The notes under the pieces are model-generated. The model did not search any database. It saw nothing but the letters and a program-made list of their open reading frames with translations, and was not told the DNA's origin. Below, piece by piece: positions 2,167 through 22,100 of a stretch of 25,922 bases of DNA. The DNA comes from an uncultured Clostridia bacterium (GTDB lineage Bacteria; Bacillota; Clostridia; Christensenellales; UBA1242), in the NCBI GenBank assembly GCA_946612575.1, contig CAMOEU010000001.1, forward strand, positions 1 through 25,922, written 5' to 3'. How positions within the stretch are numbered: the stretch's first letter is position 1; every line of letters begins with the position of its first letter. The translations under genes were made by a program, and so were the position numbers.

Positions 2167-3045
2167 GTGAAGACTAATCAAACAAAAGAACAGAATTTGA
2201 TAACTTTTTCTGGGGACAACAGTCAACTTTTTTGCAGAATAAAAATTGATGACCCTTTTGCAAACAAACTTACCTTGCTTGTTCCAGAAACACATAATGC
2301 AATTTTGATTAAAGATGGTCAAATGCTTCAAACACTCTCTTCTGGGAAATATTTGATTGCAAAGTTTGTGGATGCGAGAGTTGATTTGGATGCGACCTTG
2401 GAAGTTTTGTTTATGTCTAAGACTGCAAAACTCAAACTTCTTTGGGGGACATCTCAAATGTTTCCGCTCAATGATCCATTTTTGGAAGAAAACTACAAAG
2501 TTGGGATGAGTGGCGATTTTGATGTTCAGATTGGTGACCCAAGAAAATGTTATTTATATCTTGTAGGCGCAAACGAAAATCTTACTTCTGACGAACTTCA
2601 AGAAAGGCTTGTTATTACGGTTGTTTCTGTTTTGGAAAATGAAACTGCTGAATATGTGCAAACAAAACAGGTTTCGTTTAACCAACTTACAGTCAAAAAG
2701 AGAGAAATTTCTTCAAAGGTTTTGACAAAGATAAATCAACAACTTATGACAGATTATGGTATTGCAGTGTTTTCGTTTAATATTGCAAACATTGTGATTG
2801 ACCCAGGTGATTATCAAAGAATGATTGCCGCAAAGAAAGGCGAGGCTGTGAAGGTTGAAACAGAACAACCACAAACAAACGAAAAAGGGTTGTTTTGCAG
2901 TGAGTGTGGAAACAAACTCAGCCGTTCGGCAAAATTCTGTGACAATTGTGGTGCAAAAGTTGGAAGTGCAAATGTTTGCAAAAATTGTGGTGTAGAAAAT
3001 TCGGCGACTGCAAAGTTTTGTGAAAATTGCGGAAATAAATTGTAA
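2167..3045 (+). CDS. SPFH/band-7 domain protein (YdjI-like) with C-terminal double zinc ribbon
   Basis: 292 aa; 'LLVPETHNAILIKDGQ', 'LKLLWGT' and 'YGIAVFSFNIANI' fit the YdjI-type SPFH fold; four CxxC motifs (CSEC, CDNC, CKNC, CENC) from nt 2896; no TM segment. Confidence 0.8.
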   Translation: MKTNQTKEQNLITFSGDNSQLFCRIKIDDPFANKLTLLVPETHNAILIKDGQMLQTLSSGKYLIAKFVDARVDLDATLEVLFMSKTAKLKLLWGTSQMFPLNDPFLEENYKVGMSGDFDVQIGDPRKCYLYLVGANENLTSDELQERLVITVVSVLENETAEYVQTKQVSFNQLTVKKREISSKVLTKINQQLMTDYGIAVFSFNIANIVIDPGDYQRMIAAKKGEAVKVETEQPQTNEKGLFCSECGNKLSRSAKFCDNCGAKVGSANVCKNCGVENSATAKFCENCGNKL

Positions 3046-3056
3046 GGAGAAAAATT

Positions 3057-3461
3057 ATGTGGGTTTTTTATGTTTTGGTTTTGCTTGCGATTTTGGGAAC
3101 AGCATTCTTCTTTATCTGGAGAGAATATCATCCAAGAAAGGAAGATGACACAATCGGAAGCAGAGGAGTGCTTAAAAACAAGAAGTCTATTGAAAATATG
3201 GTTGCAAATGTTGAGAGTATAATTGTTTATGCAAATGGAAACGACACACTCTGCAACAGACTTGTTGATGTTAAGGACAATATAAAGTTTTTCAATCCAA
3301 CAACAAATCAAAAAGCAATTGCAGTTGACACAAAACTTGCAGCAAGACTTGATGACTTGAAAATTGCGGTTGCAAAAGACAACACTCAAGAGACTTGCTT
3401 CAGACTTTTGGAAGAGGTCGAGGCATATATTGTTCAAAGAAAAAAGGAAGAACAAAACTAG
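3057..3461 (+). CDS. N-terminally membrane-anchored helical hypothetical protein
   Basis: 134 aa; AAGGAG RBS overlapping the upstream stop; TM helix at residues ~2-21 followed by amphipathic helices. Confidence 0.75.
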   Translation: MWVFYVLVLLAILGTAFFFIWREYHPRKEDDTIGSRGVLKNKKSIENMVANVESIIVYANGNDTLCNRLVDVKDNIKFFNPTTNQKAIAVDTKLAARLDDLKIAVAKDNTQETCFRLLEEVEAYIVQRKKEEQN

Positions 3462-3821
3462 ATGAAAAGAAGATATGAAGCATCTGATTCGTTAAATGAA
3501 GAAGATAAACTCAGGGTGGAAAAGGAACTTAGACTTGGATATCTAAATCTGGGTGAGTTGTTTTTCGAGCAAGCAAGACTAAACTTCACTCTTGCACTTC
3601 AATATGACAGCAAATGTGCTGATGCTTATTGGGGACTTATGCTTTGCAAGTTTCAAGCAAAGTCAGAAGATTTGCTTTTTGAAAATCCTGTGGTGTATAA
3701 AGATGTTGTGTTGTTGCCAGAATATGAAAAGGCAATGACATTTGCAAGTGAAGAAAAGAGAAAAATTTACGAACAAATTCTTGAAAGAATTTATGCAATA
3801 ATTAAAGGCGAGAGTTGTTAA
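3462..3821 (+). CDS. Small stand-alone TPR-like protein
   Basis: 119 aa; starts immediately after the upstream stop; TPR-like 'FFEQARLNFTLALQYDSKCADAYWGLMLC'; similar to modules in the 1277-aa protein. Confidence 0.7.
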   Translation: MKRRYEASDSLNEEDKLRVEKELRLGYLNLGELFFEQARLNFTLALQYDSKCADAYWGLMLCKFQAKSEDLLFENPVVYKDVVLLPEYEKAMTFASEEKRKIYEQILERIYAIIKGESC

Positions 3822-3832
3822 AAGGAGAGCTT

Positions 3833-4447
3833 ATGTGGTGGCCATTTAGAAGAAACAAATTTAAAAAACTCAATCGTGAAGATTTGGTGAACTCAATTTG
3901 CGAACTTGAAAGACAAGAACGAACCGTGGAAGCGGAAGTTTTGCAAAAAATCAAAGAGATTGATGCTTTGATGGAAAAGGGAAAGAAAGAAAAAAGCAAG
4001 GATTTGCAACTTTTCTATGCGAAGAAAATCACAAATCTAAACGAAGAGAAAGAAACAAGTATGCAAAGGGGAATGTATTTGCTCTACAACATTCGCCTTA
4101 TGAACAGGCTTAAGGATGCATATGATAGCAACACATTCTTCAAGACTCAAACAAAAGTGCCATTGTCAGAACTTTTGCAAGATCAAAAAGGACTTGCCAA
4201 GTTTTTGAATAAGGCTCTTGAAACAAGAATTGCAAGTGAAGATGTGCTTACAAATGCAGATGAACTTTTCACAGAAGTTCAGGCAGCTTATGATGTTTCA
4301 CAACCAATTTATGGAGTAGGCAAAACGGAAGAAGATGTGCTTTCAATTTTTGAAAAAGAAGGACAACTTCGTGATGAAGAAGGTTTGGAAGAAGAACAAA
4401 CAAAGGTCGCAACCAAAAAGAAAAAACAAATAATGGAGGAAGAATAA
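3833..4447 (+). CDS. Snf7/ESCRT-III-like coiled-coil protein A (204 aa)
   Basis: Start moved from TTG 3815 to ATG 3833 (AAGGAG RBS). Aromatic/basic N-terminus MWWPFRRNK, long helical hairpin 'ELERQERTVEAEVLQKIKEIDALMEKGKKEKSKDLQLFYAKKITNL', acidic tail; adjacent to a second Snf7-like gene and a MIT-AAA ATPase. Confidence 0.55.
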   Translation: MWWPFRRNKFKKLNREDLVNSICELERQERTVEAEVLQKIKEIDALMEKGKKEKSKDLQLFYAKKITNLNEEKETSMQRGMYLLYNIRLMNRLKDAYDSNTFFKTQTKVPLSELLQDQKGLAKFLNKALETRIASEDVLTNADELFTEVQAAYDVSQPIYGVGKTEEDVLSIFEKEGQLRDEEGLEEEQTKVATKKKKQIMEEE

Positions 4448-4448
4448 A

Positions 4449-5039
4449 ATGGGACTTTTTAAATCAAAACAACAAAAAGAACTTGAAAAGAAAATGCTTA
4501 TCAAAAGGACAATAAACACAATGAACAAGCAAATCAACCGCTTGGAAGATCAAAAACAAGTGTTTATTGAAGCTGCAAAAAAAGCAAAAGAAAAGGATTT
4601 GGAAGCACAATATAACCTTGCACTCAGTGGTTATAAAATGACTGTCCAACAACAAAGAAGAGCACAAGAAATGCTTTTGAATTTTGAAATCACAGCTCAA
4701 ATGAAAGATGTGACAATGATGACATCAGACTTTCTTCGTGGAATGAGCGAAATCAGCAAGGAAATGACAAAACTTGCTGATGCAAAAGAATTTGCAAAAA
4801 TTCAAGCTCAATTCGAACAAGCTATGGTTGCTGTTGAGACTCAAACAGACCAAATGGACAACTTTATGGAAATGAGCCAAGAGACATTCTATAATGCAGG
4901 TCGTGACAAGTCAGGAAAAATGACTGATGCAGAATTTGAGAAGTTTATTGAAGAGCAGGCTGGACTTGACACTCTTTCTGATGACAAAATCAATAGCGAA
5001 ATTGAAGAACTTAAAAAGAAGATAGAATCTGAAAACTAA
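4449..5039 (+). CDS. Snf7/ESCRT-III-like protein B (Vps2/Vps24/Did2-like, 196 aa)
   Basis: GGAGG RBS. N-terminus MGLFKSKQQK; basic N-half and acidic C-half; Met-rich segment 'FLRGMSEISKEMTKLADAKEFAKIQAQFEQAMVAVETQTDQMDNFME'; C-terminal MIM1-like helix 'DDKINSEIEELKK'. Confidence 0.7.
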   Translation: MGLFKSKQQKELEKKMLIKRTINTMNKQINRLEDQKQVFIEAAKKAKEKDLEAQYNLALSGYKMTVQQQRRAQEMLLNFEITAQMKDVTMMTSDFLRGMSEISKEMTKLADAKEFAKIQAQFEQAMVAVETQTDQMDNFMEMSQETFYNAGRDKSGKMTDAEFEKFIEEQAGLDTLSDDKINSEIEELKKKIESEN

Positions 5040-5053
5040 CAAAAGGGAAGTTT

Positions 5054-6199
5054 ATGGCAGAAAAACCAAGTATTACTGTTTTGTCTGACACATATGACCT
5101 TTATATGAAAAAGGCAAAACAAGCGAAAGAAAATGGAAATCTCTCAATTGCAAAGAGAAATTTTCTTCTTGCCAGCCAAACAATGATGGAAATGGCAAAG
5201 CAAAGTGAAGGCAAGCTTAAAGAAATCAGAATGGACAGGGCAAGAAGGCTTGTCAAACTTACTGAAAACATTGACAAAAAGCCAGAGAAAATTGAAAAGA
5301 AATCTTCTGGAGAGTCAAACGAAGAAGATGATGAAGTAAAAAAATGGCAAACAGCACAAATTCCAAACATAACATTTGCTGATGTTGCTGGGCTTGATGA
5401 TGTCAAAAAATCTATCACAATCAGAATGATAAATCCTGTGAAATATCCAGAAAAATATAAGATGTATGGTAAGAAATCTGGTGGTGGTGTGCTTTTGTAT
5501 GGACCTCCAGGAACAGGAAAAACAATGATTGCAAAAGCTATTGCAAACGAAGTTGGTGCAAAGTTTTATGCTGTCAAGGGCTCAGATATTGTGAGTAAGT
5601 GGGTTGGCGAAAGTGAGAAAAACATAAACTCTTTGTTTGAAGAAGCAAACAAGCAAGATAGAGCCATCATCTTTATTGATGAAATGGACAATTTGCTCGG
5701 GACAAGAGGTGTTGACACTCACAACGACAAAAGAGTAAACGAATTTTTGCAGCAGATTGATGGTTTTGCTGGCAGAAATCAAAACTTGCTTTTGCTTGGA
5801 GCAACAAACAGGCCTTGGGATATTGACAGTGCAGCAACAAGATCTGGAAGATTTTCCGAGAAAATTTATTTGCCACTTCCTGATGCGGCTGCAAGAAAGT
5901 TTATGATAGAAAAAAATATGAAAAATGTGCCTGTCTCAAAAGATTTTGATATTGACAAAATTGTGGAACAGACAGAAGATTATAGCGGAGCTGATATTGA
6001 AGAACTTTGCGATAGAGCAAAGGATGAACCTCTTCTTAAGGCAATCGCGACAGACAGTGTTGTTGATGTGACAAACGAAGATTTTGATAGAGTTTTGGAG
6101 AAAATGCCTCCTTCTGTCACACCAAAAGAAATCGAAAGATTTGAAAAATACAACGAAGAAGTAAACGGACTTATAAAGAAAAACAAAAAACAAGGATAA
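5054..6199 (+). CDS. MIT-domain AAA+ ATPase, Vps4/CdvC-like
   Basis: 381 aa; three-helix MIT-like N-terminus, charged linker, single AAA module with Walker A GPPGTGKT (5501-5524), pore loop SKWVGESEK, Walker B IIFIDE (5666-5683), ATNRPW, Arg-finger RSGRF and C-terminal helix PSVTPKEIERFEKY. No TM or protease domain. Confidence 0.8.
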   Translation: MAEKPSITVLSDTYDLYMKKAKQAKENGNLSIAKRNFLLASQTMMEMAKQSEGKLKEIRMDRARRLVKLTENIDKKPEKIEKKSSGESNEEDDEVKKWQTAQIPNITFADVAGLDDVKKSITIRMINPVKYPEKYKMYGKKSGGGVLLYGPPGTGKTMIAKAIANEVGAKFYAVKGSDIVSKWVGESEKNINSLFEEANKQDRAIIFIDEMDNLLGTRGVDTHNDKRVNEFLQQIDGFAGRNQNLLLLGATNRPWDIDSAATRSGRFSEKIYLPLPDAAARKFMIEKNMKNVPVSKDFDIDKIVEQTEDYSGADIEELCDRAKDEPLLKAIATDSVVDVTNEDFDRVLEKMPPSVTPKEIERFEKYNEEVNGLIKKNKKQG

Positions 6200-6201
6200 A
6201 A

Positions 6202-9200
6202 ATGAGAGAAAGGGTTTGTAAAAATTGTGGAGGAAGACAATATAAAGTTGTTGGGCAGAATATGGTCAAATGCCAGTTCTGTGGGACTCTCTATGTGGAT
6301 GAACAAGCCTCAAAAGAAGAAGAAATTTTGCTTGTTTCTGCAAACGAAAAACTTAGAGATGCAAAGTTTGCGGATGCAATTGTAGAGTTTGACAAGATTC
6401 TTTCCATATACCCAAACTCGTTTGAAGCTTTTTTTGGAAAATCTCTCGCCAAGAATAAAATTGTGTTTTACACAAACAAAAAAGGCTCGGGGAAAAGACC
6501 AAGATATTTTGGAGACAAAATCCCACAACTTTCAAATGATGATGATTTTCAATCTGCAATAAACAGTGCTCCTGAAGAAATTGAAAAGGAGTATGGTGAT
6601 ATTGCAAAGAGAGTTGAAAGAGACATAAAAAAATATTGTGAAATTGACAAGTCAAAAGGCTGTGATGTTGTCATTTTCCAAATGAGTGAAGATGGTATTG
6701 ACAAAACAGAAAAACTTGTCAAAAAACTTAATTCAAAAAAAATAGAAACATACTTTTTGCAAGAACTTGAGACAAAAGAAAATGAAGCAGAGACCTTCTA
6801 TGCTCTTTCTTGTGCAAAAGTTTTGCTTGTTGTTGCAAACAAGAAAAATGGATATAACGATAGTGATGTAAAAAATCTTATTGATAGATTCAGATATTTT
6901 ATTTCTCAAAGACAGAAATATTCTATGGGATTTGTTATTGCATATGACAACAATGTCATTGAGAAAGAAAATTTGCCACAAGAACTTGGTTTTTGCAAAA
7001 ATTATGTTGATTTCAATTCCAAAAATTTTGTGGATTATATGACTGCAAACATTGAGACTGTGATTGAAAAAACACCACAGGAAGTTGCAAAAATTGAAAC
7101 AAGAAAAGTTGAAAAAGTTGAACCTATAAAGAAAGAATATGTTGATGTTGAAAACATTACACCAGCCGAACTTGGGCATTATAAAGTTCAAAATGTTGAA
7201 GCGAAAGATGCAATAAAGACAAAGTGGATTTTCCTTAGTTTGAAAAATGCCGATTTTGAAGCGACAGAAAAACTCATTGAAGCCGAACTTGAGAAAGATC
7301 CAAACAATGCCGAAATGCTTTTTGCACAAATGCTTTGTGAAAAAAGATTAAGGACAGCAGGCGAATTTTTTGAAAGCATATCAAATTTTGATAACAAAGA
7401 GAAAATAGACAATATTCTTGCTTACTCTTCAAAAGAGTTTGCTGAGATGTTTGTTGACAACTGGGAAAGACTTATTGAGAGTATTGACAGCGATGATTGC
7501 TACAACACATATCTTCTTTATCTTGCAAAATTTGACACTCCAAACAGAGAACATTTTGTGGAGTGTGCACAAGAAGTTGCTGTTGAGACAATGAATGAAG
7601 AGCTTATTGACAATGTTTTGAAATGCTTCAAAAAAGATGAAGTTGATAAGTATGTTAAGTTTTATTTCGAACTTGCTCAAAAGAGCGACAATCAAAAATA
7701 TTATGACAAAATTCTTGAGATTGACCAAGGTCATAAGCAAAGCAATATGTCGCTGCTACTTAGAAACTTTAAGACAAATCAAGACAAACTTGAATTTAGA
7801 GACAGAGAAAAAATTGAAGATAGCCTAAAATTTTTGGATGATGATGCAAGAAGTCAGTTTGCTTTTGCTGTGATAAATCTTGTTATTCCTGTTGCATTTT
7901 TGGATTTGAAAAAGGCTGAAGAGCAGATTGATTTTTATCTTTCTTATGTTGATCCAAAAAATTATGAAATCCCATACAATATTGCAAAGAAGTTGCTTGA
8001 TGTAAATTCTTTCAGATTGGCTGAAAAATATATCGCTATTGCAATTTCAAGAAATAAAAAAGATGCGACACTTTATTGGGAGCTTTTAAAGATAAAAGCT
8101 CATTGCAAGACTGATGCTGAAGTTGTGACATCTCCAGTTGACTTGACACAATTCCCTGAATGGCAAACTTTGCTGAATTATGCAAACGATGAACAGACAG
8201 AGCAATATGCAGAAATTGTCAGCAAATCACACCTTTATAAAGGCAAAAAGAAGCAGATTGCTGAAGAACTTATTGACAAACAATCAATGATTGAGAAATT
8301 GACTGATTTCTTAAACAGAAACAACAAAATTTTGCTTGAAAATGAAGAAGAAAACGGAATTGTTTCTGTCAAAGGTTGTGAATATTTCAAGATTCAACTT
8401 TCACCATTTGAAGATTATTTAAACATTGTCAAAGATGTTGAAACTTTTGATGATTATGTTGCAATTGCATCACATATTTATCAAAGACTGTTTTTCCTTG
8501 GATTGACACTTGAAAGTTCGGTAAGTTCGATTCAGATAAATGAAAAAGGTGAAGGTCTTAAAAATGTCGAAATTGGAAGAAGTCTTTCTTTAGGTCACAA
8601 AAAACAAAAGAAAATAAAAACAAACAAAACAAAAGAAGAAAGACTTGTTGATCCGGAACTTATTGAAAGAAGAAAGAAATTTTGGAAACTTTTCTTTTTT
8701 GGATTTTTTGAGATTTTCCCTGTTTTGTTTTTGACGATTTTGTTGACAATTAACATAGGTAATTCAAAACTTGTTTATGCTTATTTTTCACAAAAAGCAA
8801 TTCTAATTATGATGCTTTATTCTGTGGTTGTAGGCTTTGGAAATCTGATTTATTATATGCTAAGAAAGAAAAAATTTGCGATAAAGAAAAAGCTTTCATT
8901 GATTTTTCTTATGATATTTGCTTTTTTGAATGTTATTCTTCTTGTAATTGGATTTTATTTGACTGATAATACAATCAGAATTTACAACGGAAATGAATTT
9001 GAAACTTTTGTAAATAATGCAACTTATTCAAATATTGAGATTGAAAATGATATTAATTTCAAAGGAAAGGAAATTTCGGTTGGAGATTTCTATGGAAAAA
9101 TTGATGGAAAAGGTTTTTCGTTAAATAATGTTGCATTGAAACAAACAGAAAACACGGCGATGATCCGTAGCAATTTTGGGACAATCAAAAATCTGAAAAT

Positions 9201-10035
9201 CAATCTTGAAACAAAAACATACAGAAATATTTCAAACTTTGCAGTGATTGCGATAAACAATTATGGAGAGATTATTGGTTGTGAAATTTCTGGAAATGTA
9301 AAAATCTATGCAAAAGATTCATTAAATTGTGGTGGATTCACAACATATCAATGTGCAGGAGAAATAACAGAATGCACTGATAATACAAATATTGAAATTG
9401 CAAACCTGAAAAAAACTGGAAAGCTTGGAAAACTTGCTGCAGTGGTGAGTGGAAAAACAAGTTTTGTAAAAAATGAAACTTATGGAAGTTTCAAAATTTC
9501 TGAAAATGAATGCGAAATGGTGTATTTTGGTGGACTTGCTGGTTATGTTGATGGAGATTTTGAATGCAAATTTGAACAAAATGCCGCAAAAACTGATATA
9601 AATGTAAATGTTTTTTCAAAAAGTTTAACGATTGGTGGGCTTTTTGGTTATTCAACAAAATCAAGCAAAAACAACTATGCCGATTTTAACATTAGTAATG
9701 TAAACACCAACAACGGAAATGTTGGCGGACTTTATGGCGAGTTTGTTTGCTACAATCCGGCTGATGCAATAGCTTTTAGTTATGCGAAGATGAATTTAAG
9801 TATCTCAATGACTGGTCATGTGGGTGGAATTGTCGGTGGAACACACGGAAGCATCAAAAATTGTTTCTTTAAGGCTAATGAGTTATTAAATATTGCTTCA
9901 GGGCAACAAATTGATATGACGACAATTTCAAATTGTATGAGCAATTTGGAAGGATATAAAAAAGCTCTTGGCTTCAGCTCAGAATATTGGAATGGTGTGA
10001 ATGAAGATTCTTCTAATTATCCAACTTTAAAATAA
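6202..10035 (+). CDS. Large membrane receptor-like protein: Zn ribbon - TPR - TIR-like - TPR region - 3 TM - extracellular GLUG-type repeat domain
   Basis: 1277 aa; CKNC...CQFC at the N-terminus; TIR-like segment at ~153-290 ('ALSCAKVLLVV...DVKNLIDRF...LPQEL'); TM helices at ~827-853, 866-887 and 898-920; C-terminal GGLAGY/GGLFGY/GGLYGE/GGIVGG repeats. Confidence 0.7.
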   Translation: MRERVCKNCGGRQYKVVGQNMVKCQFCGTLYVDEQASKEEEILLVSANEKLRDAKFADAIVEFDKILSIYPNSFEAFFGKSLAKNKIVFYTNKKGSGKRPRYFGDKIPQLSNDDDFQSAINSAPEEIEKEYGDIAKRVERDIKKYCEIDKSKGCDVVIFQMSEDGIDKTEKLVKKLNSKKIETYFLQELETKENEAETFYALSCAKVLLVVANKKNGYNDSDVKNLIDRFRYFISQRQKYSMGFVIAYDNNVIEKENLPQELGFCKNYVDFNSKNFVDYMTANIETVIEKTPQEVAKIETRKVEKVEPIKKEYVDVENITPAELGHYKVQNVEAKDAIKTKWIFLSLKNADFEATEKLIEAELEKDPNNAEMLFAQMLCEKRLRTAGEFFESISNFDNKEKIDNILAYSSKEFAEMFVDNWERLIESIDSDDCYNTYLLYLAKFDTPNREHFVECAQEVAVETMNEELIDNVLKCFKKDEVDKYVKFYFELAQKSDNQKYYDKILEIDQGHKQSNMSLLLRNFKTNQDKLEFRDREKIEDSLKFLDDDARSQFAFAVINLVIPVAFLDLKKAEEQIDFYLSYVDPKNYEIPYNIAKKLLDVNSFRLAEKYIAIAISRNKKDATLYWELLKIKAHCKTDAEVVTSPVDLTQFPEWQTLLNYANDEQTEQYAEIVSKSHLYKGKKKQIAEELIDKQSMIEKLTDFLNRNNKILLENEEENGIVSVKGCEYFKIQLSPFEDYLNIVKDVETFDDYVAIASHIYQRLFFLGLTLESSVSSIQINEKGEGLKNVEIGRSLSLGHKKQKKIKTNKTKEERLVDPELIERRKKFWKLFFFGFFEIFPVLFLTILLTINIGNSKLVYAYFSQKAILIMMLYSVVVGFGNLIYYMLRKKKFAIKKKLSLIFLMIFAFLNVILLVIGFYLTDNTIRIYNGNEFETFVNNATYSNIEIENDINFKGKEISVGDFYGKIDGKGFSLNNVALKQTENTAMIRSNFGTIKNLKINLETKTYRNISNFAVIAINNYGEIIGCEISGNVKIYAKDSLNCGGFTTYQCAGEITECTDNTNIEIANLKKTGKLGKLAAVVSGKTSFVKNETYGSFKISENECEMVYFGGLAGYVDGDFECKFEQNAAKTDINVNVFSKSLTIGGLFGYSTKSSKNNYADFNISNVNTNNGNVGGLYGEFVCYNPADAIAFSYAKMNLSISMTGHVGGIVGGTHGSIKNCFFKANELLNIASGQQIDMTTISNCMSNLEGYKKALGFSSEYWNGVNEDSSNYPTLK

Positions 10036-10057
10036 AAACCTTAAATATAAGGTTTTT
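10034..10057 (+). terminator. Intrinsic terminator closing the 7-gene operon
   Basis: AAAAACCTTA-aata-TAAGGTTTTT perfect stem plus T-run, directly at the stop codon. Confidence 0.75.
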
Positions 10058-10067
10058 TATTTTTTAT

Positions 10068-10754
10068 ATGGTCAAAAATCTATATGTGGATTGTGTTTTT
10101 CTCGTTTTTTTAATGATTGGAGCGATAAAAGGTGCTAAAAAGGGTGTTTTTGGCAGTTTTTTCAAGGTTGTAGTTTTTATTTGTTCAACAATAGCTGCGA
10201 TTTTTATCTCAAACAAAATTGTCGAATTGTGGCTTAGTGAAAGTGAGATTGGGGTTTGGCTTGAAAGTCAGATGTCTGCATTTATTAAAAATATATGTAA
10301 AAATGTTGAGACAAAAGAAGATTTTTTAAATTTTTTGCAACAAAAAAACAACATTATTGCAATAATTATGACAAAAATTATTGATAGAATTGAAATTGGA
10401 CAAGGGGATAGTTTTATTGAAACTATTTCTCAAAAAATAACTGTCATACTTGAAAAAGCGGTTGTTTTTATAATTGTTTTTCTTATTGTATATATCTTTT
10501 TGAGAAAAATAACAAGTTTTGCTGGAAAAATATCAAAAATAAGTGTAGTTGGTGGTGTTGATAAAATATTTGGTGTTTTGTTTGGTGTGGCAAAAGCAGC
10601 AATCTTCTTTGGGATTTTCTATTTTGGTGTTGGTGTTTTGTCAAATTTAGTGCAAAATCAAATTTTGACAAACTTAATGCAAAACGACAAAATGGTTAGT
10701 GTTTTATATAATATGGTATATGAAAAAACAATCAGTGTGTTTTTGCCATACTGA
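10068..10754 (+). CDS. cvpA: CvpA family (colicin V production) membrane protein
   Basis: 228 aa; 'VDCVFLVFLMIGAIKGAKKGVFGS' at the N-terminus and 'DKIFGVLFGVAK' near the C-terminus are CvpA family motifs. No clear RBS. Confidence 0.8.
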   Translation: MVKNLYVDCVFLVFLMIGAIKGAKKGVFGSFFKVVVFICSTIAAIFISNKIVELWLSESEIGVWLESQMSAFIKNICKNVETKEDFLNFLQQKNNIIAIIMTKIIDRIEIGQGDSFIETISQKITVILEKAVVFIIVFLIVYIFLRKITSFAGKISKISVVGGVDKIFGVLFGVAKAAIFFGIFYFGVGVLSNLVQNQILTNLMQNDKMVSVLYNMVYEKTISVFLPY

Positions 10755-13132: not shown

Positions 13133-16100
13133 ATGAAAAAATTTAGGATAGCATTGATGTCGATTTTTACATTGCTTCTTGGCAGTGTGCTTGTTGGATG
13201 TAATTTCAAAAAACCTGAAATTGATTTCTCAAAAGAGCAGGTTTATATTTCTGCGGGAGAAGAAGTTGATCTTAGAGGTCTTTTGAATGTGAAAGAGGTC
13301 GATGCAAAAGATGTTAGGTTTAGATTTGAAGATTCTTCACTCTTTCAAGTTTCTGAAGGAAAGATAAAAGCAAAGAGTAGAAGTGGTGAGTCTTATGTTT
13401 ATGCCACATACAACAATGATGTTTTTGCCTCAATTAAAGTTTTTGTTAAACAAAAATTCTCAACACCTAAAAACTTTTCAATGAATGAAAATGGACTTAT
13501 CTCTTGGGACAAGTCACTTGCGATTTACAGCAGTGAAACAACACCTACATTTGCAAGCTCTTATAGAGTTTATGGAACATACACTTCATACACTGGCGGG
13601 CAAGAAAACGAACCTGAAACATTTGAAGTTTTCTCAAACACAAATTCATATCAACTTGAAAACGAAGGTGTTTACAATATCAAAATTGTTGCACAAGGCA
13701 CGGACAGATTTGATGCTAGTGCAGAATATGCCGTTCAGTCATTTGGCTTTGGATATATGCCAAAAATTGCAACAGCAGATTTGATTTGGTCAAATGATGG
13801 TGTTCTTTCTTGGGAAACAACTGAGATTGAAAATGCGGAATACGAAGTTTATGTTGACGGCATTAAGGTTGTTGACAAACAATCACAAAAGAGTGCAGAC
13901 CTTTCAGAGTTGTTTGACGAGCTTCAAGCAAAAAATCATACAATCAAAGTTGTTGTTTATGATGCTGTTGGCGACAAAATGCCTACAGAAAGCGATGCAA
14001 TTTCTGTTTTGAAGTTGGCAAGTCCTGTTGCTACATATGCTTTTTCAGCAGAAAATGGTGGGCTTATTTCCTTGGGAGCAAATCCACTTATTGATCACTA
14101 TAAATTCACACTTGTTGGTGATGATGAAGAAGTTGTCACAATCGACAATGAAGAAGATGGAGTTTTGACTTCACTTGATATGATTGATGCTGGTGTTTAT
14201 TCACTTTCTATCCAAGCAATTGCCGTTGAAGGAAATTATTATCAAAGTGACAAAGTTTCTTTTGGGAAAATCTACAAACTTGAAACATTGACTATTTCAG
14301 GAACAGACAAGAATGTTGAGAATTCAAACACATTCAATCTTCTTGCAAGTGCAAATGCAAGTGTTGACACAATTCTTTCAGTTAATGTTGGGGAAACAAA
14401 AACAACTTCAATCGGGATTGAAGCTGGGGAAACAAGTGCCGAATTTGAAGTGGAAGTTCCTTCAAATGGTATTTACTCTGTTTCTGCAAAGCAATTTGCA
14501 AAGGAAGAGCAAAACACAATCTTTGGAGAAAGAGTTTATGTTTTGAATTCAAACTTGAGTGAAGCAGTTGTTGTTGAAAAACTTGAAGCAATTTCAAACA
14601 TCACTCACGAAATTGAAAGTGAAAAATCTGTTTTTGTTTTCGATGAAGTTGAAAATGCTGACAAATATGAAGTGTTTGCACTTGATGGAGAAGAGTTTGC
14701 TCTAGTTGACAGCAGTTTGTATTCTTGCGAGATTTCTCAAGGCAAGGTTAGATTTGTTTTTGATGACAAAATTGAAAACTTGAATGTTGCACAAAATGAA
14801 AAAGTGTTTACGATTAAGTTTGTTGCAAAGAAAAATGATGAAACCCTTACAATAAACTCTGCAAAACAAAAAGTTTTGACCGAACTTGATATAGCAGGAA
14901 ATGTGGAAAAAGAAAACTTAAACAAAGTTTATTCTTGGACTGCAGTGGAAAATGCAGATGCCTACAGGGTGGGAATTTACAACATTGACAAAGCTACATT
15001 TATAGCAGGACAAACAGACATTGACACGACTACACTTGACAAAAATGAAGAAGTTGTCGATACAAATTCTTATACATTTGCAAACGAAGGATATTATCTT
15101 GTCAAAGTTTTCTCACTTACTGAAAATGCAAATGAGTTTATAAACTCAACAGAGTCTTTTGACAGACTTGTTTGTGTTTCTGAAAAACTTGTTGTTGAAG
15201 ATTTTGATGTAAGTTTTGTTGGTGGAAAATATAATGTTGTGATTGAAAATAAAGACCATTTTGATAAATATGAGGTTTATCTTGATGATGTGAAGATTCT
15301 TGACACAACAGCAAGCAGTGAAGAAAACTCAACATATATTCTTGAAACAGATTTTGCTGATGAAACAAAAACTTACAAGATTGAAGTTGTTGCAAAAGCA
15401 AATGATAATGTGCTTTATGAAAATTCAGAGAAAAAGGCAGTGAGAGTTGTCAAACTTCCACAAATTGTTGGGGAAGATATTGAAATTGCAAAACAAAGCA
15501 TTGCCGTGGGCTCAGATATGAAAACAGCAACACAATCACAAGAAATGAAAGTGAGTGCTGTTGAAGGTGCAAGAGGAGTGCTTCTCTATCAAGAAACAAA
15601 CCCAGCAGAAAGAGCTGGCGGAGAGGATGCAACAACCGCAACATATGACCTTGGCACAATTGCAAACACAAACTTTGTGTTTAAGTATTTTGGTTCTGCA
15701 AAACAAGGGAATGTTTTTGTAAAGACAAATGGATATATTTATCTTGACAGTGAAGAGTCAACAATAAACATTTCTAGACTTGAAACTCCAACAAATTGTG
15801 AATATGTAAACGGAGTCTTGAAGTTTAATAATACAAACACAGCAATCACAGAATATTATGTTGTGACAATTGTGTGCAAAGGACAAGATGGAGAAAGAAG
15901 AAACATTGTTGTCGAACTTTCAACAGAAGCAAAAGCAACTTATGGAGAAAATTCTGAAGTTATTGGAAATGGCGGCGACTTTGTTTCAAATAATGTAAAT
16001 GAAGTTTCAATTTCCATTGAAGATCTCATTGAAGCTGTTTCAAATGTTTCTGATGTTGAAATCAGACAAGTTTACTCTCAAGCAGCAAGCTTTGGATTTG

Positions 16101-19100
16101 CTGTTTACAGTTATGCAAATATAGTTAACGATGATGCTGTGGTTTCGTCTTCAAACTATGCCGGCACAGCTTTGGATGCAAACACAAAAGTTGTTGTTGT
16201 GGAAAAGATGACTGCTCCAGAAATTTCTTACCAAATAATTGGAGAAAACATTGTCTTCAATTGGGATGCGGTTTCAACTGATGCTGCAGTTTCTGCACAA
16301 ACAACATATCAAATGTTTGTAAATGGAAACGAATATGGACAAGTTATTTCTGGCACTCAAACAGCAAGTTATGCTTTGAGCGAATTTGCCCTTGGAACAT
16401 ATTATACATTTGCACTCACTGCACCAAATCCAAATTATATAGAATCGAGTCTTTCAAACAAAGTTAGAATTTTTAGACTCAACAAAATTACTTCACTCAA
16501 ACTTCTTACTGGTGGGGACTATGATGGACAATTGCAATATGAATTGTCTTCACAAGAACAAGAATTTGTAGATTATGTTTTGGTTGGTGAAGAACATAAT
16601 CAAACAGGAAAAATTGAAATTTCTGCTCCAGGTGCAATTACACTTAAAGTTGTTGGAAAGAAAAATGTCGAAAGTCAAGATATGACAACAACATACATTG
16701 ACAGTGAAACAACAACTTGGACTCTCAGTCAAATGCAAACACTTAAACCAGCATTGGAAAACTTTGAATATAACAATGGTGTTTTGAGCTGGGATGAATT
16801 TGCTGAAGGAAATAATTTTGAAAACCTTAAATATGTCTTGATTTTCACTGATTCTCAAGATAATATCGTTTCTTACACAACAAATCAAAACGAAGTTTCG
16901 ATAAGTGAAACAACATTGGATGAGACATTGCAAAGACTTGTTGAAGGAAACATTGACATCTCACTTTATGCAAAACTTGAAACTTATGATGTTGTCGCTG
17001 GCGGAACAATTTATTACAGCAACAAGATAACACTTGAAAATGATTTTGAAGTTGCAAACTATCATAAATATGCAAACACACTTTCAATTTCAAAACTTCC
17101 TACTCCAGTTGTTTCGAATGTGGAATTTGTTGAAGATAGCACAAATGGAATTTACAACACTCCAAATATTGAAATAACATTTACAGGCGACTATGGAAAC
17201 GAAGCAGACTTTGTTGTTTCTTCAAACATTGATGGACAAGAAATCACAACAGAAACTGTTAAGCTTACAAAGAATGCTGATTCATATAAATATGTAATGC
17301 AAGCAGAAAAGTATAAAAACAAGTTTGCAAGCGGCAAAACGATTGTATTCAAAATTGCTGCAATCAGTGAAGAAAACATTCCTTCATCTGTGGGAAGTGT
17401 GAATGTCCTTTGTGCAAACACAATATCTGGATTTGAAATCAAAGAAGATAAAAACGGAGAAGGTCTTTCTCACTTGCTTCAAATAAATGTTGCACAAGCT
17501 GATGTTCAAAAAACTGCTGGCGGATTTGATTTGGCATTTGGGATTATTGAAAATGGCGGCTCTGAAAAATATATTCATATTCAAAAGAGTGTGTCAACAG
17601 TTTCTACAACACAAACTTTTGACATTACAGATGTGATTGAAACACATTTGGCAAATGGCGGATTCTTGACAATTTCAATTACGACCCGCTCTTATTCAAA
17701 TGCGGAAAGTGGTGTATATATTCTTGCATGTCCTACATATTACATTCTACCTAAGTATGATGTTTTGTCAGGAGTGACTCAGGCAAACATAACAAAAACT
17801 GCTGGTGGATTTGAAATTGATAAAACAGTAAATAATGAAACAACAAAATATAAAGTTGTTTATGGTGCAAATGTTTATGATGTTATTTATAAGGATGACA
17901 AATTCTATTTTGAAGTTCCAACAACTTGGGTAAATGGAAATTATGAACTTAAAATCTATGCCGTTGAAAGTGATTATATTTATTCAAAACAACTCAACTA
18001 TACATTTGTGTTAAACAGAATTGATAATGTGACAAATGTGTCAATCACAAGAGACAGCGAAGATCTTTCTGATGGAAAAATTGAATGGACAAATGTTTCT
18101 GGTGCAGCTGGATATATGCTTAGAATTTATAGTGACAACACAAGAAGCAAAGAAATAACAAGGGTTTCATCTTCTACAAATTCTTTGAAATTCAGCGAAA
18201 TCTTCACAGAAGAATTTTATGACGAACTTAGAATAAACGAAGAAGATAAAGATATTTTTGTTGGAATTGCTGCACTTGGACAAAATGAAACCGCAAACGA
18301 TTCTCAAGAATACACATTCAATGCAAAAGTTTGTGGAAATTACTTTGATGTTGAAGAAGAAATTAAACTCAACGAATATGGTTTGGTGACATTCAAAGCA
18401 ACTGCTGGAAAAACATATATCTATAGATTTGTTGACACGGCTGGACAAGTGCTTTCTGATTGGGTTGAGGTGACAGCGGAAGATGATATTGTCACAATTG
18501 ATGCAAGTGTTTTAAATAGAGATTCTTCAAACAATGTTAGACCTGCCGGAACAGTTTTTGACATTCAAATTATTGTTGTGGGAAGTTATGATGGTGACAC
18601 AATTTCATTTAACTCAAAACCAGTTTCGACAGAAGACTCTGATGTGAAATTCTTGATTAATGCTGAAATAAGTAAAATAGAATACAATTCAAGTTATGCA
18701 GAATATATCACATTTGAAATGCAAACATTTGAAGCTGCATCACAAGGTGAAGAAGACGAAGAGTCTGAAGAAGAAAGCAGTGCTATTGACATTTTGTATT
18801 ATGGTGTCGAAGCAGATGCAATCAAGACAGGAAAAGTTTCATATATAACTCCAAAGGTTTTGAAGAACAATGATGATGGAACAAGCATTTATGGATGCAA
18901 ACTTATCGATTTGATTCTTGATATGACAAGTGAAGAAAATGTTGAGAAATTTGGAGAACTTCCTTCAGGAGATACAACAATTTATTTCTGGTCATACAGA
19001 AAAGACGACGGTGAGATTTTGAATGACTACATAAATTCTCCAGCAAAAGGATATGTGATAAATCACACCGCTGATGCAAACTTTGTTGGAATAGAAAAAT

Positions 19101-22100
19101 ATGGACTTCCAGAAGATGCTCAATTCCAAGAAGATTATGCAAACACATTTGCACTCTTTGAAACAAATGAAACATTATTAAATATGAATGTTGGTGTTGT
19201 TGTGAGAGTGACTGATGGAAATGAGACAATCACTAAGTTTATCAGTCGAGCAGAAATGGTTGGCAACGAATATTTTGAAGGTAGAGATGTGATTGTTGCA
19301 AACCTTACAAACCTTTTTGAAACAACAAACGGTTTGAAAGATATGTATGGTGATTTGACAATTGATATTCTTAGAGTGAAAATACAAACATTGACTCAAA
19401 GATTTGTGATTTCAGATTGGACAGAAGCAATTGAGTTTAAGAGAATTCAAGGTGTTGACAAAATCACACTTTCAGCAGGAGCAGTTTCTTGGAAACCAAA
19501 AGACACATACAATGGAAGTTTCTATGTTTATTTGATAAGTAAAGATGCTTATGATGAAGAGACTGGCATAATTGATGGAAACTATTCAGTGTTTAGAACA
19601 ACAAACACATACTTCTCAATTATGGATAAAATCACTGAAGACGATGAATTCTATATTGCAATTCAAGCAATTGGACTTCCAGACAACATTTTGCCATCAG
19701 CTAAATTGTTTGTCATGGAAAACGGCAAAGCAAAGCTTATCAGAAAAAACAAAATAACAAACAAACTCAATCTTGAAAACGGAAACTTGTCATTTGATTG
19801 GACAGGTTCTGATTTGATTGAATTCTTGAATGGTGTAGATGAAGTGTCTGTGACTAAAGTAGATGAATTATACAAGAGCACTTTCAATATTCCATTCACA
19901 TTCAACATTACTGATTTTGTAAAAGAACAATATGTTGTTAGATTTAGATTTACAAATAAAGAAACAAACAAAGTTCAAACATTTGATGTTGATGCACAAG
20001 AATTTGTGACAAATGAATTTTTGACGGAAACAGTACCTGGAAAAGATTATACTTACGAGCAACTTCTTACAAATCTTGCAACAATTGCAGGCTCAACAGT
20101 TCAAAAGAATGAAATAAACACTTTTGTAAGCATGCTTAAAAAATCAAGACTTGGAGTGGGAAATTCTAAAAACTTGTTTGATGATTATTTTGAAACTCTT
20201 CAAGCAGGCAATTATAGTCTTGAATACAGCCTTGTTGGAAGAAACTATTCAATAAGCTCAAATTGGGTTTCTTTTGAAAATGCTCAAGGAGAAAATAGTG
20301 TTTATGTTTTGAGACAACCAAACATTAAAGTTCTCAGAACTCCAAGCAATACTGATTCAAGCAAAAACTATTATAAAGTGTTTATCAAAATGGTAAGTTT
20401 ACACTATTTTGAAAACGGTGTTGACACAGAGAAACTTGCCGAACACTATGTTTGGAAAGTTTATAAGAAAACGGAAGAGGGTGAAAATGCATTTGTGTTT
20501 GACATCCAAAAGTCAGGAGATGACTATGCTGTTTCACTTCTTGGTGTTGATGGTTATAATGCAAAAGCAATTAGATGCGATGAAAACGGAAATGCAGATG
20601 CAGATGGAATGTATATAATGTTCTATCTCAACTTGGAAGAAGATTCAATTCTTGGCAGATTTGGAAACGAATTTGATAAGACAAACTACAAATTCCAAAT
20701 TTATGCAGTTGGAAATGATCTTTGCATTTCAAGTAAAACAGAGATGTTTGAAATCGTATTCCTTGGTTTTGATACAGGACTTAGTGTTATTGATGGTGTG
20801 TTTAATTGGACAACACAGATGAATAGAAACACAACAGTTATCTATAAGAAAGATTCATCTATAGAAGAAAAGAAAGTTGTTTTGAATGGAAGTGGAAGTT
20901 CGATAACATACAGCCTTGAAGGTGCTGGACTTTACAATTACATTAAGTTTATATCATTTGGTGAAGTTGCAGGAAACAAAGTTTATGTTGACAGCGAAAT
21001 TTACACATTCAAAAATGTTTATAAACTTGAAAAACCTGTTTTGCAAAACTTAAATGGAAATATTGCAATCAATGACAGTGGAAACAAAACATGGATAGAA
21101 AAATGTTATTCAACAACAAGCCTTTACAATTATAGGATATACAACAATGTTTCTACAGAAACTTCATATATAACATTTGTGGATGGTAATGAAGCAAAAG
21201 ACTTGTATATGTATGAGCCTGGCACAACAAACATAGAAAGTTCAGATCCAAATTTTGAATACAAAAAGACAGAATTTGACCCTGCAATTCAAACATTCTA
21301 TGTTTCAAGCATAGGTTCGACATCTAGATTTGTGTTTGAAAAAGATCCTGAACAAAACGGTGTTATAAATGCTTATTGCAAAGAAGAAAAGGATGGAGAA
21401 GAAGGTAAAAACAACCTTAGTATTGCAATTTCAAGTGATATTGCTGATTTCAATGCAAAAATGATGAATACAGTTTCAAAAGTTGAAATTAAGGATGGTA
21501 TTATAACTTGGAATAAAGTTGAGAAGAGTGTTTTGAACTATGGTGATGATGAAACTATGGACTTGACCTTGCCAAACAAGACATACACAGTTTATAAAGT
21601 CACAATCGAACAATACAACGAAAAAGGTGGTGTTCCAGAAAATAGCGAAGCGGTTGACCCAATTTTGATTACAAAATATACAACAAAAGAACAATTTGAC
21701 TTTGCATATCTCTCAGAGAGTGAATTCAGTGAAGATGCAGAATATATCAAAGTGACAGTTCAAGCACTTGCATTGTCTGTTTCACAAACAGTTCCTGAAG
21801 GAATTGCTGACAATATGTGGGTAAGACTTGTTGACGGCAGAATTGGTTATGGCCTTACACAATATCAAGAGAGATATAAAGAAAATGAAGATGATATTGG
21901 AACAAAATTCTATGTGTTGCTTGGACAAGGTGCATCTATCGATCAAATAACACACACAGCACATGTTGATGACAATTCTCTTAAAGTTGAAAATGGAAAA
22001 GTTTATTGGACATACACTCTTGATGGTGCAATTGCAAATTATGGCGAAGATTATGATTTGTTTAAAAATTATCAATTTACTATATTTGACAAAGATTCAA

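Follow-up and report, generated by a model that had tools for sequence, protein, structure and literature searches.

A Vps4-like AAA+ ATPase beside candidate ESCRT-III-like genes in an uncultured Clostridia bacterium, and its kinship with archaeal long-finger Vps4

[quoted passage not shown] Among the archaeal systems of this kind, the Meth_adaptin clade is represented by Methanosalsum zhilinae (GCA_000217995.1; CP002101), with Vps4 WP_013898573.1, ESCRT-III protein WP_013898574.1 and SPFH protein WP_013898576.1, and Vps4 as a whole has been derived from Cdc48 (Makarova et al. 2024, mBio, PMC10936438). Bacterial ATPases combining an MIT domain with a Vps4-like module have been described as partners of a protein with TPR and six transmembrane segments, e.g. 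Opitutus ACB74714.1 (Ravi et al. 2024, mSystems, PMC11237479); according to a 2025 review, a Vps4-like ATPase is seemingly absent in bacteria. The present analysis concerns an ATPase gene (5054-6199, + strand) and the genes around it in a 25,922-nucleotide stretch of an uncultured Clostridia bacterium of the order Christensenellales (contig CAMOEU010000001.1 of assembly GCA_946612575.1), hereafter the window. Full-text literature searches found no description of this Clostridia module.

Sequence and predicted structure make it fairly probable that the ATPase is a bacterial protein of the Vps4 family, taken broadly in the extent that Makarova et al. (2024) give to arCOG01307, from a branch with a long arginine finger, and that it acts, most likely, as a hexameric disassemblase recruited through its MIT domain to two helical proteins encoded upstream, here called A and B. 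With this lineage a known system gains a new bacterial variant, one that displays ancestral states on a basal Vps4 branch. An earlier note, made from the letters of the window, had described the protein as a mosaic of Vps4 and Cdc48 features. The reading frame is real and every motif string quoted in it is present and conserved, including ATNRPW (residues 250-255) and the finger region AATRSGRFSEKIYLPLPD (260-277), but a peculiar chimera or an independent recruitment is not supported: RxGRF and SKWVGESEK are ancestral Cdc48-D2-like states found also in archaeal Vps4 relatives.

Domain make-up and nearest relatives of the ATPase

The closest described counterpart is archaeal. When 142 Halobacteriota and Thermoplasmatota genomes were scanned with Pfam MIT, the result was mostly TPR-like noise and one useful match, which led to M. 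zhilinae: a 393-residue protein with an MIT domain, an AAA module and the motifs SKWVGSSEKNI, ATNEPW and RRPGRFSK. Against the AAA module of the Clostridia ATPase (the query) it scores 228-247 bits, compared with 144-208 bits for CdvC, Asgard Vps4 and Cdc48 D2. In BLAST, too, Meth_adaptin Vps4 is the nearest protein outside the bacterial family (244 bits, 39-40% identity over 354 residues that include the MIT domain), ahead of Asgard Vps4 (216 bits), Cdc48 D2 (203 bits) and CdvC (201 bits). Query and Meth_adaptin Vps4 share an MIT domain, a single AAA module, a C-terminal helix and the states SKWVG(E/S/A)SEKNI, TNxPW and long RxGRF-S; their loci share a helical gene upstream of the ATPase, with a similar C-terminal tail on its product, and a gene for an SPFH and zinc-ribbon protein. 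The Meth_adaptin system differs in its archaeal host, in the modest sequence identity and in having one upstream helical protein rather than two. The bacterial module lacks adaptin-appendage and ProX genes, has instead a giant zinc-ribbon/TPR/TIR protein and small membrane and TPR genes, and carries its SPFH gene co-directionally, whereas that of M. zhilinae is divergent.

Members of the Meth_adaptin-type clade in this sampling are Methanosalsum, Methanolobus, Methanococcoides and Methanohalophilus. The motifs of the Methanosalsum ATPase recur in a second tier of proteins (51-56% identical), and the one second-tier contig with housekeeping genes that was examined is archaeal (archaeal-type UMP kinase, 290 bits), with a HEAT-repeat gene upstream of the ATPase. 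Some relatives of the Methanosalsum Vps4 (L280:7001-8683, protein P0410; also P0405 and P0409; L and P numbers are working labels of loci and proteins) carry a diadenylate-cyclase (DAC) domain as a C-terminal fusion, at a locus with a HEAT-repeat gene upstream and SPFH-containing and VWA genes nearby. Such a fusion would link a Vps4-like motor to cyclic di-AMP signalling.

Other known systems stand further away. CdvC, Asgard and eukaryotic Vps4 resemble the query in overall architecture, MIT profile homology, the PW motif and the C-terminal helix, and the beta-domain is absent as in CdvC, but their finger is R--RF rather than RxGRF and their pore loop KWL rather than KWV; the bacterial module also has none of the CdvA, ESCRT-I/II or winged-helix-fused CdvB genes. 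Cdc48/VAT/p97 D2 shares pore loop 1 (in its prokaryotic form), RxGRF and the C-terminal helix, and gives the highest raw sequence scores, but the query lacks the N (double-psi barrel) domain and D1, and has Trp rather than Asp after TNxP and Ser rather than Asp after GRF. ATPases of the Opitutus type are likewise bacterial, combine MIT with a Vps4-like AAA module and adjoin a large TPR membrane protein; going by their description only, the Clostridia module is set apart by its ESCRT-III-like genes, its SPFH gene and its hosts.

Profile searches outline the same position. Pfam recognises in the ATPase an AAA domain (E 4.9e-42), AAA_lid_3 and Vps4_C (24.7 bits; cut-off 21.3), the last restricted to the final helix, a helix that also aligns to the C-terminal helix of p97 D2. 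In a scan of 151 Halobacteriota genomes, which yielded two Main-clade Vps4 besides mostly Cdc48 D2, many Cdc48 proteins of 730-800 residues matched Vps4_C (PF09336) above the gathering cut-off by their C-terminal helix, so a Vps4_C match alone does not identify Vps4. The NCBIfam CdvC model (NF041006) aligns end to end (residues 10-369 on model positions 7-367 of 370) at 212.5 bits, below the equivalog cut-off of 650 bits, with TACK CdvC proteins at 379-687 bits; the CDC48 model (TIGR01243) aligns on its D2 part only (446-729) at 223.6 bits, against a cut-off of 802. Both labels, Cdc48 and CdvC orthologue, are thus ruled out by curated cut-offs, and the query falls outside Cdc48/VAT also by its one AAA module and by an N-domain that is a helical bundle, not a double-psi barrel. 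The label of the anti-phage ATPase IetA/IteA was rejected as well (NCBIfam, 117.9 against 510 bits; no subtilase gene adjoining in the window).

The AlphaFold2 model, built on a 28-sequence alignment, has a predicted local distance difference test (pLDDT) value of 84. Its closest Swiss-Prot AlphaFold model is Sulfolobus acidocaldarius CdvC over the full length (5-369 on 2-370; template-modelling (TM) scores 0.70/0.72), followed by fungal, plant and animal Vps4, also at full length and interleaved with Cdc48 D2; in the PDB, the AAA part fits p97 D2 best. The single AAA module has intact Walker A and B motifs, an aromatic pore loop 1 and TNxPW. Among 28 members 35-82% identical to the query, Walker A G150-T157, D209, E210, N252, R263 and R266 are invariant or nearly so; D209 is invariant in that alignment, and D209 and E210 both in a six-sequence one, which confirms Walker B and E210 as the right residue for the E210Q substrate trap proposed earlier. 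The link DEPLLKAIATDSVVDVTNEDF and the C-terminal helix PSVTPKEIERFEKY are both present in the open reading frame (ORF), and the beta-domain is missing as had been read from the letters: the span from C319 of the lid to F344 measures 26 residues, where CdvC and Asgard Vps4 have a median of 33, and the modelled lid contains no strands. This is the archaeal condition.

The N-terminal bundle is modelled as helices 7-26, 30-50 and 54-72 (pLDDT >92; 93 for the isolated domain). Its first description as MIT-like holds for the model, the profile and the fold, although neither a Pfam MIT match nor a PDB sequence match was found for the N-terminal 100 residues. Profile-profile alignment (hhalign) of 24 family N-domains with 21 CdvC and Asgard MIT domains gives 96% probability and E 4.1e-9 over 76 columns. 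The top PDB fold matches are 2w2u and 2v6y (Sulfolobus Vps4 MIT) and 1yxr and 2jq9 (VPS4A MIT), with human VPS4A/B MIT among the top, at TM 0.67-0.72; their weak E-values (0.05-1) are to be expected, since the bundle has only about 70 residues. On profile-profile comparison and predicted fold, we accept the N-domain as an MIT domain.

Maximum-likelihood (ML) trees place this protein with archaeal Vps4. They were computed with IQ-TREE 2.4 under LG+C20+F+G4 (posterior mean site frequencies, PMSF) from about 286 columns of AAA module, lid and C-terminal helix; supports are given as ultrafast bootstrap/SH-aLRT (UFboot/SH-aLRT) and read as bipartitions. Long-branch second modules of tandem proteins and near-duplicates were excluded, and eukaryotic Vps4, katanin, spastin, Halo_adaptin and Opitutus-type bacterial Vps4 are not among the rows. 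In the 100-row tree the bacterial family is recovered at 100/99, the family with Meth_adaptin at 100/97, CdvC with Asgard Vps4 at 96/93, and all Vps4-like proteins apart from Cdc48 D1/D2, PAN and FtsH at 99/92; a group of Vps4-like proteins and D2 reaches only 71/19. With Main-clade Vps4 added, the short-finger clade stands at 97/95, the query outside it, and all Vps4-like proteins at 98/92. In the 96-row tree, to which 13 second-tier archaeal sequences were added, the archaeal long-finger group and the bacterial family each receive 100/99, the two together 99/96, and all Vps4-like proteins, here too apart from the other AAA clades, 99/96.

The sister relation of the bacterial family to archaeal long-finger Vps4 is thus well supported by sequence, and a distinct Vps4-like lineage outside the CdvC and Asgard group, as the earlier note had proposed, is borne out. 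Nor does the family nest in an unrelated bacterial AAA family never found next to Snf7-like genes; two helical genes lie upstream in seven of nine loci. The lineage had also been expected to inform on transfer between archaea and bacteria, which it does by its sister group but not as to direction: the two long-finger groups are reciprocally monophyletic in this sampling, so the tree gives none. Transfer from archaea to bacteria is favoured by the otherwise archaeal composition of the family; the greater bacterial diversity and the narrow range within Methanosarcinaceae keep the opposite direction open. A 395-residue MIT-like and AAA protein of a Nitrososphaerota metagenome-assembled genome (MAG) (L097:2574-3761, + strand; SKWLGESEK, SNEPW and the long finger RAGRI) forms a long branch within the Vps4-like clade, its placement there unresolved, and is not the same protein as that phylum's CdvC.

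Motif states fit this history, although not all of those first taken as Vps4 marks are such. The motif K-W-[VMLIF]-G-E-x-E-K...F, with the family's EKN continuation excluded, was sought in 185,579 species genomes, one per prokaryotic species; about 110 of 120 loci among the matches listed encode Cdc48/VAT of 700-760 residues from archaea and some bacteria, whose D2 reads exactly SKWVGESEK, then ATNRP(D/N/E)...RPGRF. The Trp-bearing pore loop is therefore simply the usual Cdc48-D2 loop of prokaryotes and no argument for Vps4; CdvC and Asgard Vps4 have SKWLGE(A/S)EK. Compared with TACK CdvC, Asgard Vps4, two Main-clade euryarchaeal Vps4, PAN, FtsH and Cdc48 D1/D2, the bacterial family shares PW after TNx with Meth_adaptin, the Nitrososphaerota MIT-AAA protein, CdvC, Asgard and Main Vps4, whereas the position of W255 is PD in Cdc48 D2, PN in D1 and Asp in PAN and FtsH (NRxD), Trp in none of them. 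After RF, most Vps4-like proteins have S/Q/E/K; Cdc48, PAN and FtsH have Asp there, and so do the divergent relatives L010, L097 and P0366, which have kept it. Trp in TNxPW, GRF-S rather than GRF-D, an N-terminal MIT domain and a single AAA module are the discriminating marks of Vps4.

In the arginine finger, a two-residue deletion (R(R)RF or SRF) is confined to CdvC, Asgard and Main Vps4, whereas the query (R263-S-G-R266-F), archaeal long-finger Vps4, Cdc48, PAN and FtsH share the long RxGRF form, a geometry of two arginines two residues apart that works in p97, FtsH and proteasomal ATPases. The view that Vps4 has an RRF finger thus stands for TACK CdvC, Asgard and Main Vps4 and fails for the archaeal Meth_adaptin type (TNEPW...RRPGRF(S/K)), which reads like the query, so that the motif combination is not unique to bacteria. 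Judged by these alignments, RxGRF is an ancestral state retained by the query and some archaeal Vps4; together with SKWVGESEK it is read as Cdc48-D2-like, the RRF deletion being a later change on one branch.

The family is bacterial and patchy. A search of a representative library, which ranks by summed score and, with multi-AAA proteins crowding out single-domain archaeal relatives, is useful only for family members, gave about 22 full-length clusters at 50% identity (43-63% identical, 373-564 residues). Named members all come from Clostridia MAGs (Candidatus Caccovivens, 'Clostridia bacterium'), save one contaminant in a beetle assembly, and hundreds of copies about 80% identical occur in metagenomes; the gene is common in animal-gut Clostridia. 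At E <= 1e-70, the host's order has matches in 29 of 251 genomes and in 19 of 137 genera; within the genus, three of eight other species have one, all with genomes of 0.8-1.2 Mb that are 99-100% complete, and none was found in 300 genomes from elsewhere in the class. Such a distribution is that of an accessory module. Many members (P0126, P0132, P0134, P0137, P0138, P0145 and others; 462-564 residues) have a C-terminal extension of 100-190 residues that has no Pfam match and is absent from the window protein. Others carry two AAA modules per chain (P0121, 704 residues; P0131, 710; P0141, 659; P0158, P0182, P0186 and P0227); both modules of P0121 fall inside the bacterial family, which makes it a re-invented tandem ATPase, not Cdc48.

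Gene neighbourhood

The ATPase gene is the sixth of a packed co-directional row at 2167-10754 (Table 1), with spacings from a 7-nucleotide overlap to a 32-nucleotide gap, a promoter-like site ahead of it at 2116-2145 and no convincing + strand terminator found within it.

Table 1. Features of the ATPase and its gene row in the window
Feature	Position	Strand	Description or basis
Vps4-family AAA+ ATPase gene	5054..6199	+	ATG start, 381 residues; MIT, linker, one AAA module, lid, C-terminal helix
MIT-type three-helix bundle, residues 7-72	5072..5269	+	AlphaFold2, hhalign, PDB fold matches
Acidic disordered linker, residues 78-94	5285..5335	+	pLDDT <50; length and sequence variable in family
Walker A GPPGTGKT, residues 150-157	5501..5524	+	Invariant in family alignments
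Pore loop 1 SKWVGESEK, residues 181-189	5594..5620	+	Same as prokaryotic Cdc48/VAT D2
Walker B IDEMD, residues 208-212, catalytic E210	5675..5689	+	Family alignments
Sensor-1 region TNRPW, residues 251-255	5804..5818	+	W255 is a mark of the Vps4-like clade
Arginine-finger segment R263-S-G-R266-F267, then Ser	5840..5854	+	Long form
C-terminal helix, residues 357-380	6122..6193	+	AlphaFold2 helix; matches Pfam Vps4_C positions 28-59
Protein B, 196 residues	4449..5039	+	ESCRT-III-like helical protein, likely substrate; next gene upstream of ATPase
Protein A, 210 residues	3815..4447	+	Helical, paralogue-like partner of B; conserved with B in 7 loci
SPFH (Band_7_1) and double zinc-ribbon protein	2167..3045	+	Pfam; first operon gene
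Small genes: 134-residue membrane protein, 119-residue TPR-like protein	3057..3821 (3057-3461, 3462-3821)	+	Conserved in genus
1277-residue zinc-ribbon/TPR/membrane protein, GLUG-type outer part	6202..10035	+	Starts 2 nucleotides past ATPase stop
CvpA (colicin V production) family membrane protein	10068-10754	+	32-nucleotide gap after operon

The order SPFH and zinc-ribbon gene, small gene(s), A (about 200 residues), B (about 196 residues), ATPase recurs in two congeners, one further family of the order and metagenomic contigs, over 41-80% identity and across the family tree, including the basal member P0177. Besides the seven bacterial loci with both helical genes, of about 200 residues each, an eighth on a truncated contig has only the B-like gene complete; B lies upstream of the ATPase in all eight B-bearing loci, with a TIR protein intervening in the other family of the order. 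The SPFH and zinc-ribbon gene is present in L007-L009, L245 and L246, and a gene of about 104-137 residues takes the place of the small genes in L245, L246 and L248. The M. zhilinae locus is laid out similarly, as a Snf7-like gene (a weak Pfam Snf7 match, E 4.8e-4), Vps4 and two unknown proteins, with an SPFH and zinc-ribbon protein and a ProX-type binding protein on the divergent strand; the two SPFH and zinc-ribbon proteins are 22% identical over 210 residues (E 3e-7), plus the ribbon.

Protein B provides further points of contact. Its C-terminal tail EELKKKIESE resembles DELSKKIESE of Methanosarcinaceae ESCRT-III, and its last helix reads I/L-x-x-L-[RK]-K-K-I in five of eight loci. In an ESM-Atlas feature search the neighbours of B include bacterial clusters in which 13% of members have Pfam Snf7 (score 0.96) and a Nitrososphaerota 'SNF7' cluster; a profile of B returned nothing relevant from the PDB. 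A and B align with each other at E 0.0024 over 168 columns in hhalign, with a probability of only 12%.

Downstream, homologues of the giant adjoin the ATPase in L007-L010; they combine a zinc ribbon, TPR, TIR_2 and transmembrane segments with LRR or GLUG outer parts (LRR_5 in L010). TIR_2 exceeds its Pfam cut-off in the giants of L009, L010 and L245, and was not detected by Pfam in the window's own 1277-residue giant. The free TPR-like protein at 3462-3821 resembles segments of the giants of L008, L009 and L010 (BLAST, E 2e-6 to 3e-4). In related loci (L245:9582-15777, L248:4180-4956, L006/L010) a trypsin-like serine protease, zinc-ribbon-fused in L010, directly follows the ATPase, and in L245 a BrxL-like Lon-type protein and a 1314-residue TIR protein follow the protease; such neighbours hint at a conflict or defence setting. 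PADLOC matched no window gene to a defence system, the ATPase showing only generic similarity to the IetA AAA domain (138.8 bits). The CvpA-family gene does not adjoin the module in the other loci examined.

Of the window's large ORFs, one of 3701 codons takes up 11 kb (13133-24238), and that of 1277 codons 3.8 kb. The host assembly has 0.69 Mb at 86% completeness and its congeners 0.8-1.2 Mb, very small for Clostridia. Contigs of ruminant-gut metatranscriptomes match parts of the 134-residue membrane gene and of A at about 98-99% identity; over the ATPase the matches are limited to 33-41 nucleotides around Walker A and stem from other organisms, so that these data hold nothing usable on expression of its gene. 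At 8599-8634 an A-rich low-complexity stretch draws many unrelated reads with poly-A overhangs, and the depth spike there is an artefact of that sequence.

Proposed mode of action and competing explanations

By likeness to the action of Vps4 and CdvC, we propose that the ATPase would extract B, and perhaps A, from polymers. B and A would polymerise on the membrane in the manner of ESCRT-III, with the SPFH and zinc-ribbon protein as a scaffold, and the MIT bundle would dock on the acidic/basic C-terminal helix of B, possibly also on that of A. Six AAA modules would assemble, aided by the C-terminal helix, with ATP bound at G150-T157 and hydrolysed via E210, and with R263 and R266 of the neighbouring subunit serving as fingers; the pore loops K182-W183-V184 could then draw a subunit through the pore, leading to turnover or constriction of the polymer. 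Since its distribution is patchy and accessory, the module would probably repair or remodel membranes while coupled to a zinc-ribbon/TPR/TIR sensor that spans the envelope. That distribution and the tie to a TIR/TPR protein of the envelope suggest a function in stress, repair or conflict rather than in cell division; relatives retain FtsH, and their small genomes are ordinary ones.

Several results weigh against this proposal. Shallow profiles of A and B (7-8 sequences) give at most 1% probability in hhalign against five Methanosarcinaceae ESCRT-III proteins; Pfam Snf7 is insignificant on the homologues of A and B (E 1.4-6.6), and A has no Pfam match. The ESCRT-III nature of A and B is therefore best treated as a lead, drawn from context, tail motif and the ESM-Atlas neighbours. 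The most divergent locus, L010 (38% identity, pore loop KYM), has a TPR/TIR giant and none of A, B and SPFH, so the ATPase can work without them. On the phylogenetic side, approximately unbiased (AU) tests do not reject a group of the long-finger proteins (bacterial and Meth_adaptin) with Cdc48 D2 (cost 9.4 log-likelihood units, p 0.35), and a bacterial family placed with D2, away from Meth_adaptin, is marginally disfavoured (42 units, p 0.072). Membership of the bacterial family in one Vps4 clade is accordingly supported by the ML trees and shared characters and not proved by topology test.

A different client is conceivable, although we rate it as rather unlikely: the ATPase may primarily assemble, reset or activate the neighbouring zinc-ribbon/TPR/TIR giant as a TIR-based envelope sensor, after the fashion of an anti-phage or stress-signalling module, with A, B and SPFH as add-ons. 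The giant or a homologue adjoins the ATPase in every long contig examined, L010 included, TIR_2 is above cut-off in giant homologues, and some loci add the protease, the BrxL-like protein and a second TIR giant. The patchy occurrence in order and genus is as for accessory or defence genes, and the bacterial MIT and Vps4-like ATPases of Ravi et al. (2024) have a TPR and six-transmembrane partner. Speaking against the giant as principal client are the lack of a PADLOC system match and of a detectable TIR domain in the window's own giant, the fixed place of B upstream of the ATPase and its conserved tail like that of archaeal ESCRT-III, and the known binding of MIT domains to ESCRT-III tails. The two proposals are compatible with each other.

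It is less probable still that the ATPase is an independently truncated Cdc48/VAT D2 joined to an unrelated three-helix domain, its likeness to Vps4 being convergent. The best PDB and NCBIfam sequence matches are indeed p97/CDC48 D2 (202 and 223 bits), the pore loop, the RxGRF finger and the C-terminal helix are common with D2, the AU test tolerates a long-finger and D2 clade, and three-helix bundles are common folds matched here with weak Foldseek E-values. Since Makarova et al. derive Vps4 from Cdc48, however, likeness to D2 is expected; the ML trees unite one Vps4-like side at 98-99/92-96, PW is common to Vps4-like proteins, most of which have lost the Asp after RF, and the N-domain profile matches true MIT domains. 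The sister group, moreover, is an ATPase of archaea that had been assigned to Vps4 before, with ESCRT-III and SPFH genes adjoining. A general protein-quality-control unfoldase in an incidental operon position is very improbable: the classical AAA module with intact pore loops and the tiny genome, in whose assembly FtsH was not found, would suit it, but that assembly is incomplete, relatives keep FtsH beside the ATPase, gene order is conserved over 41-80% identity, and a gene missing from most genomes of the genus is unfit for housekeeping.

Significance for the Vps4 family

Disassembly of A and B by an MIT-recruited Vps4 thus remains the preferred reading. A farther-reaching version, which we hold to be doubtful, is that Clostridia possess a complete and ancient bacterial counterpart of the Meth_adaptin ESCRT system, made up of SPFH and zinc ribbon, ESCRT-III-like polymers and an MIT-Vps4 motor, and that the narrow Methanosarcinaceae system may derive from bacteria. 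[quoted passage not shown]

Independently of that version, the gene represents a well-supported bacterial Vps4 branch that has its presumed substrates as neighbours, a combination missing from bacteria according to recent reviews. The family polarises the history of the motifs, with PW and the MIT fusion coming first and the RRF deletion later, towards CdvC, Asgard and, by extension, eukaryotic Vps4. It also offers a tractable minimal Vps4, free of the beta-domain and with a Cdc48-type finger, for mechanistic work, and a case on which to test which way transfer between Clostridia and methylotrophic methanogens went.

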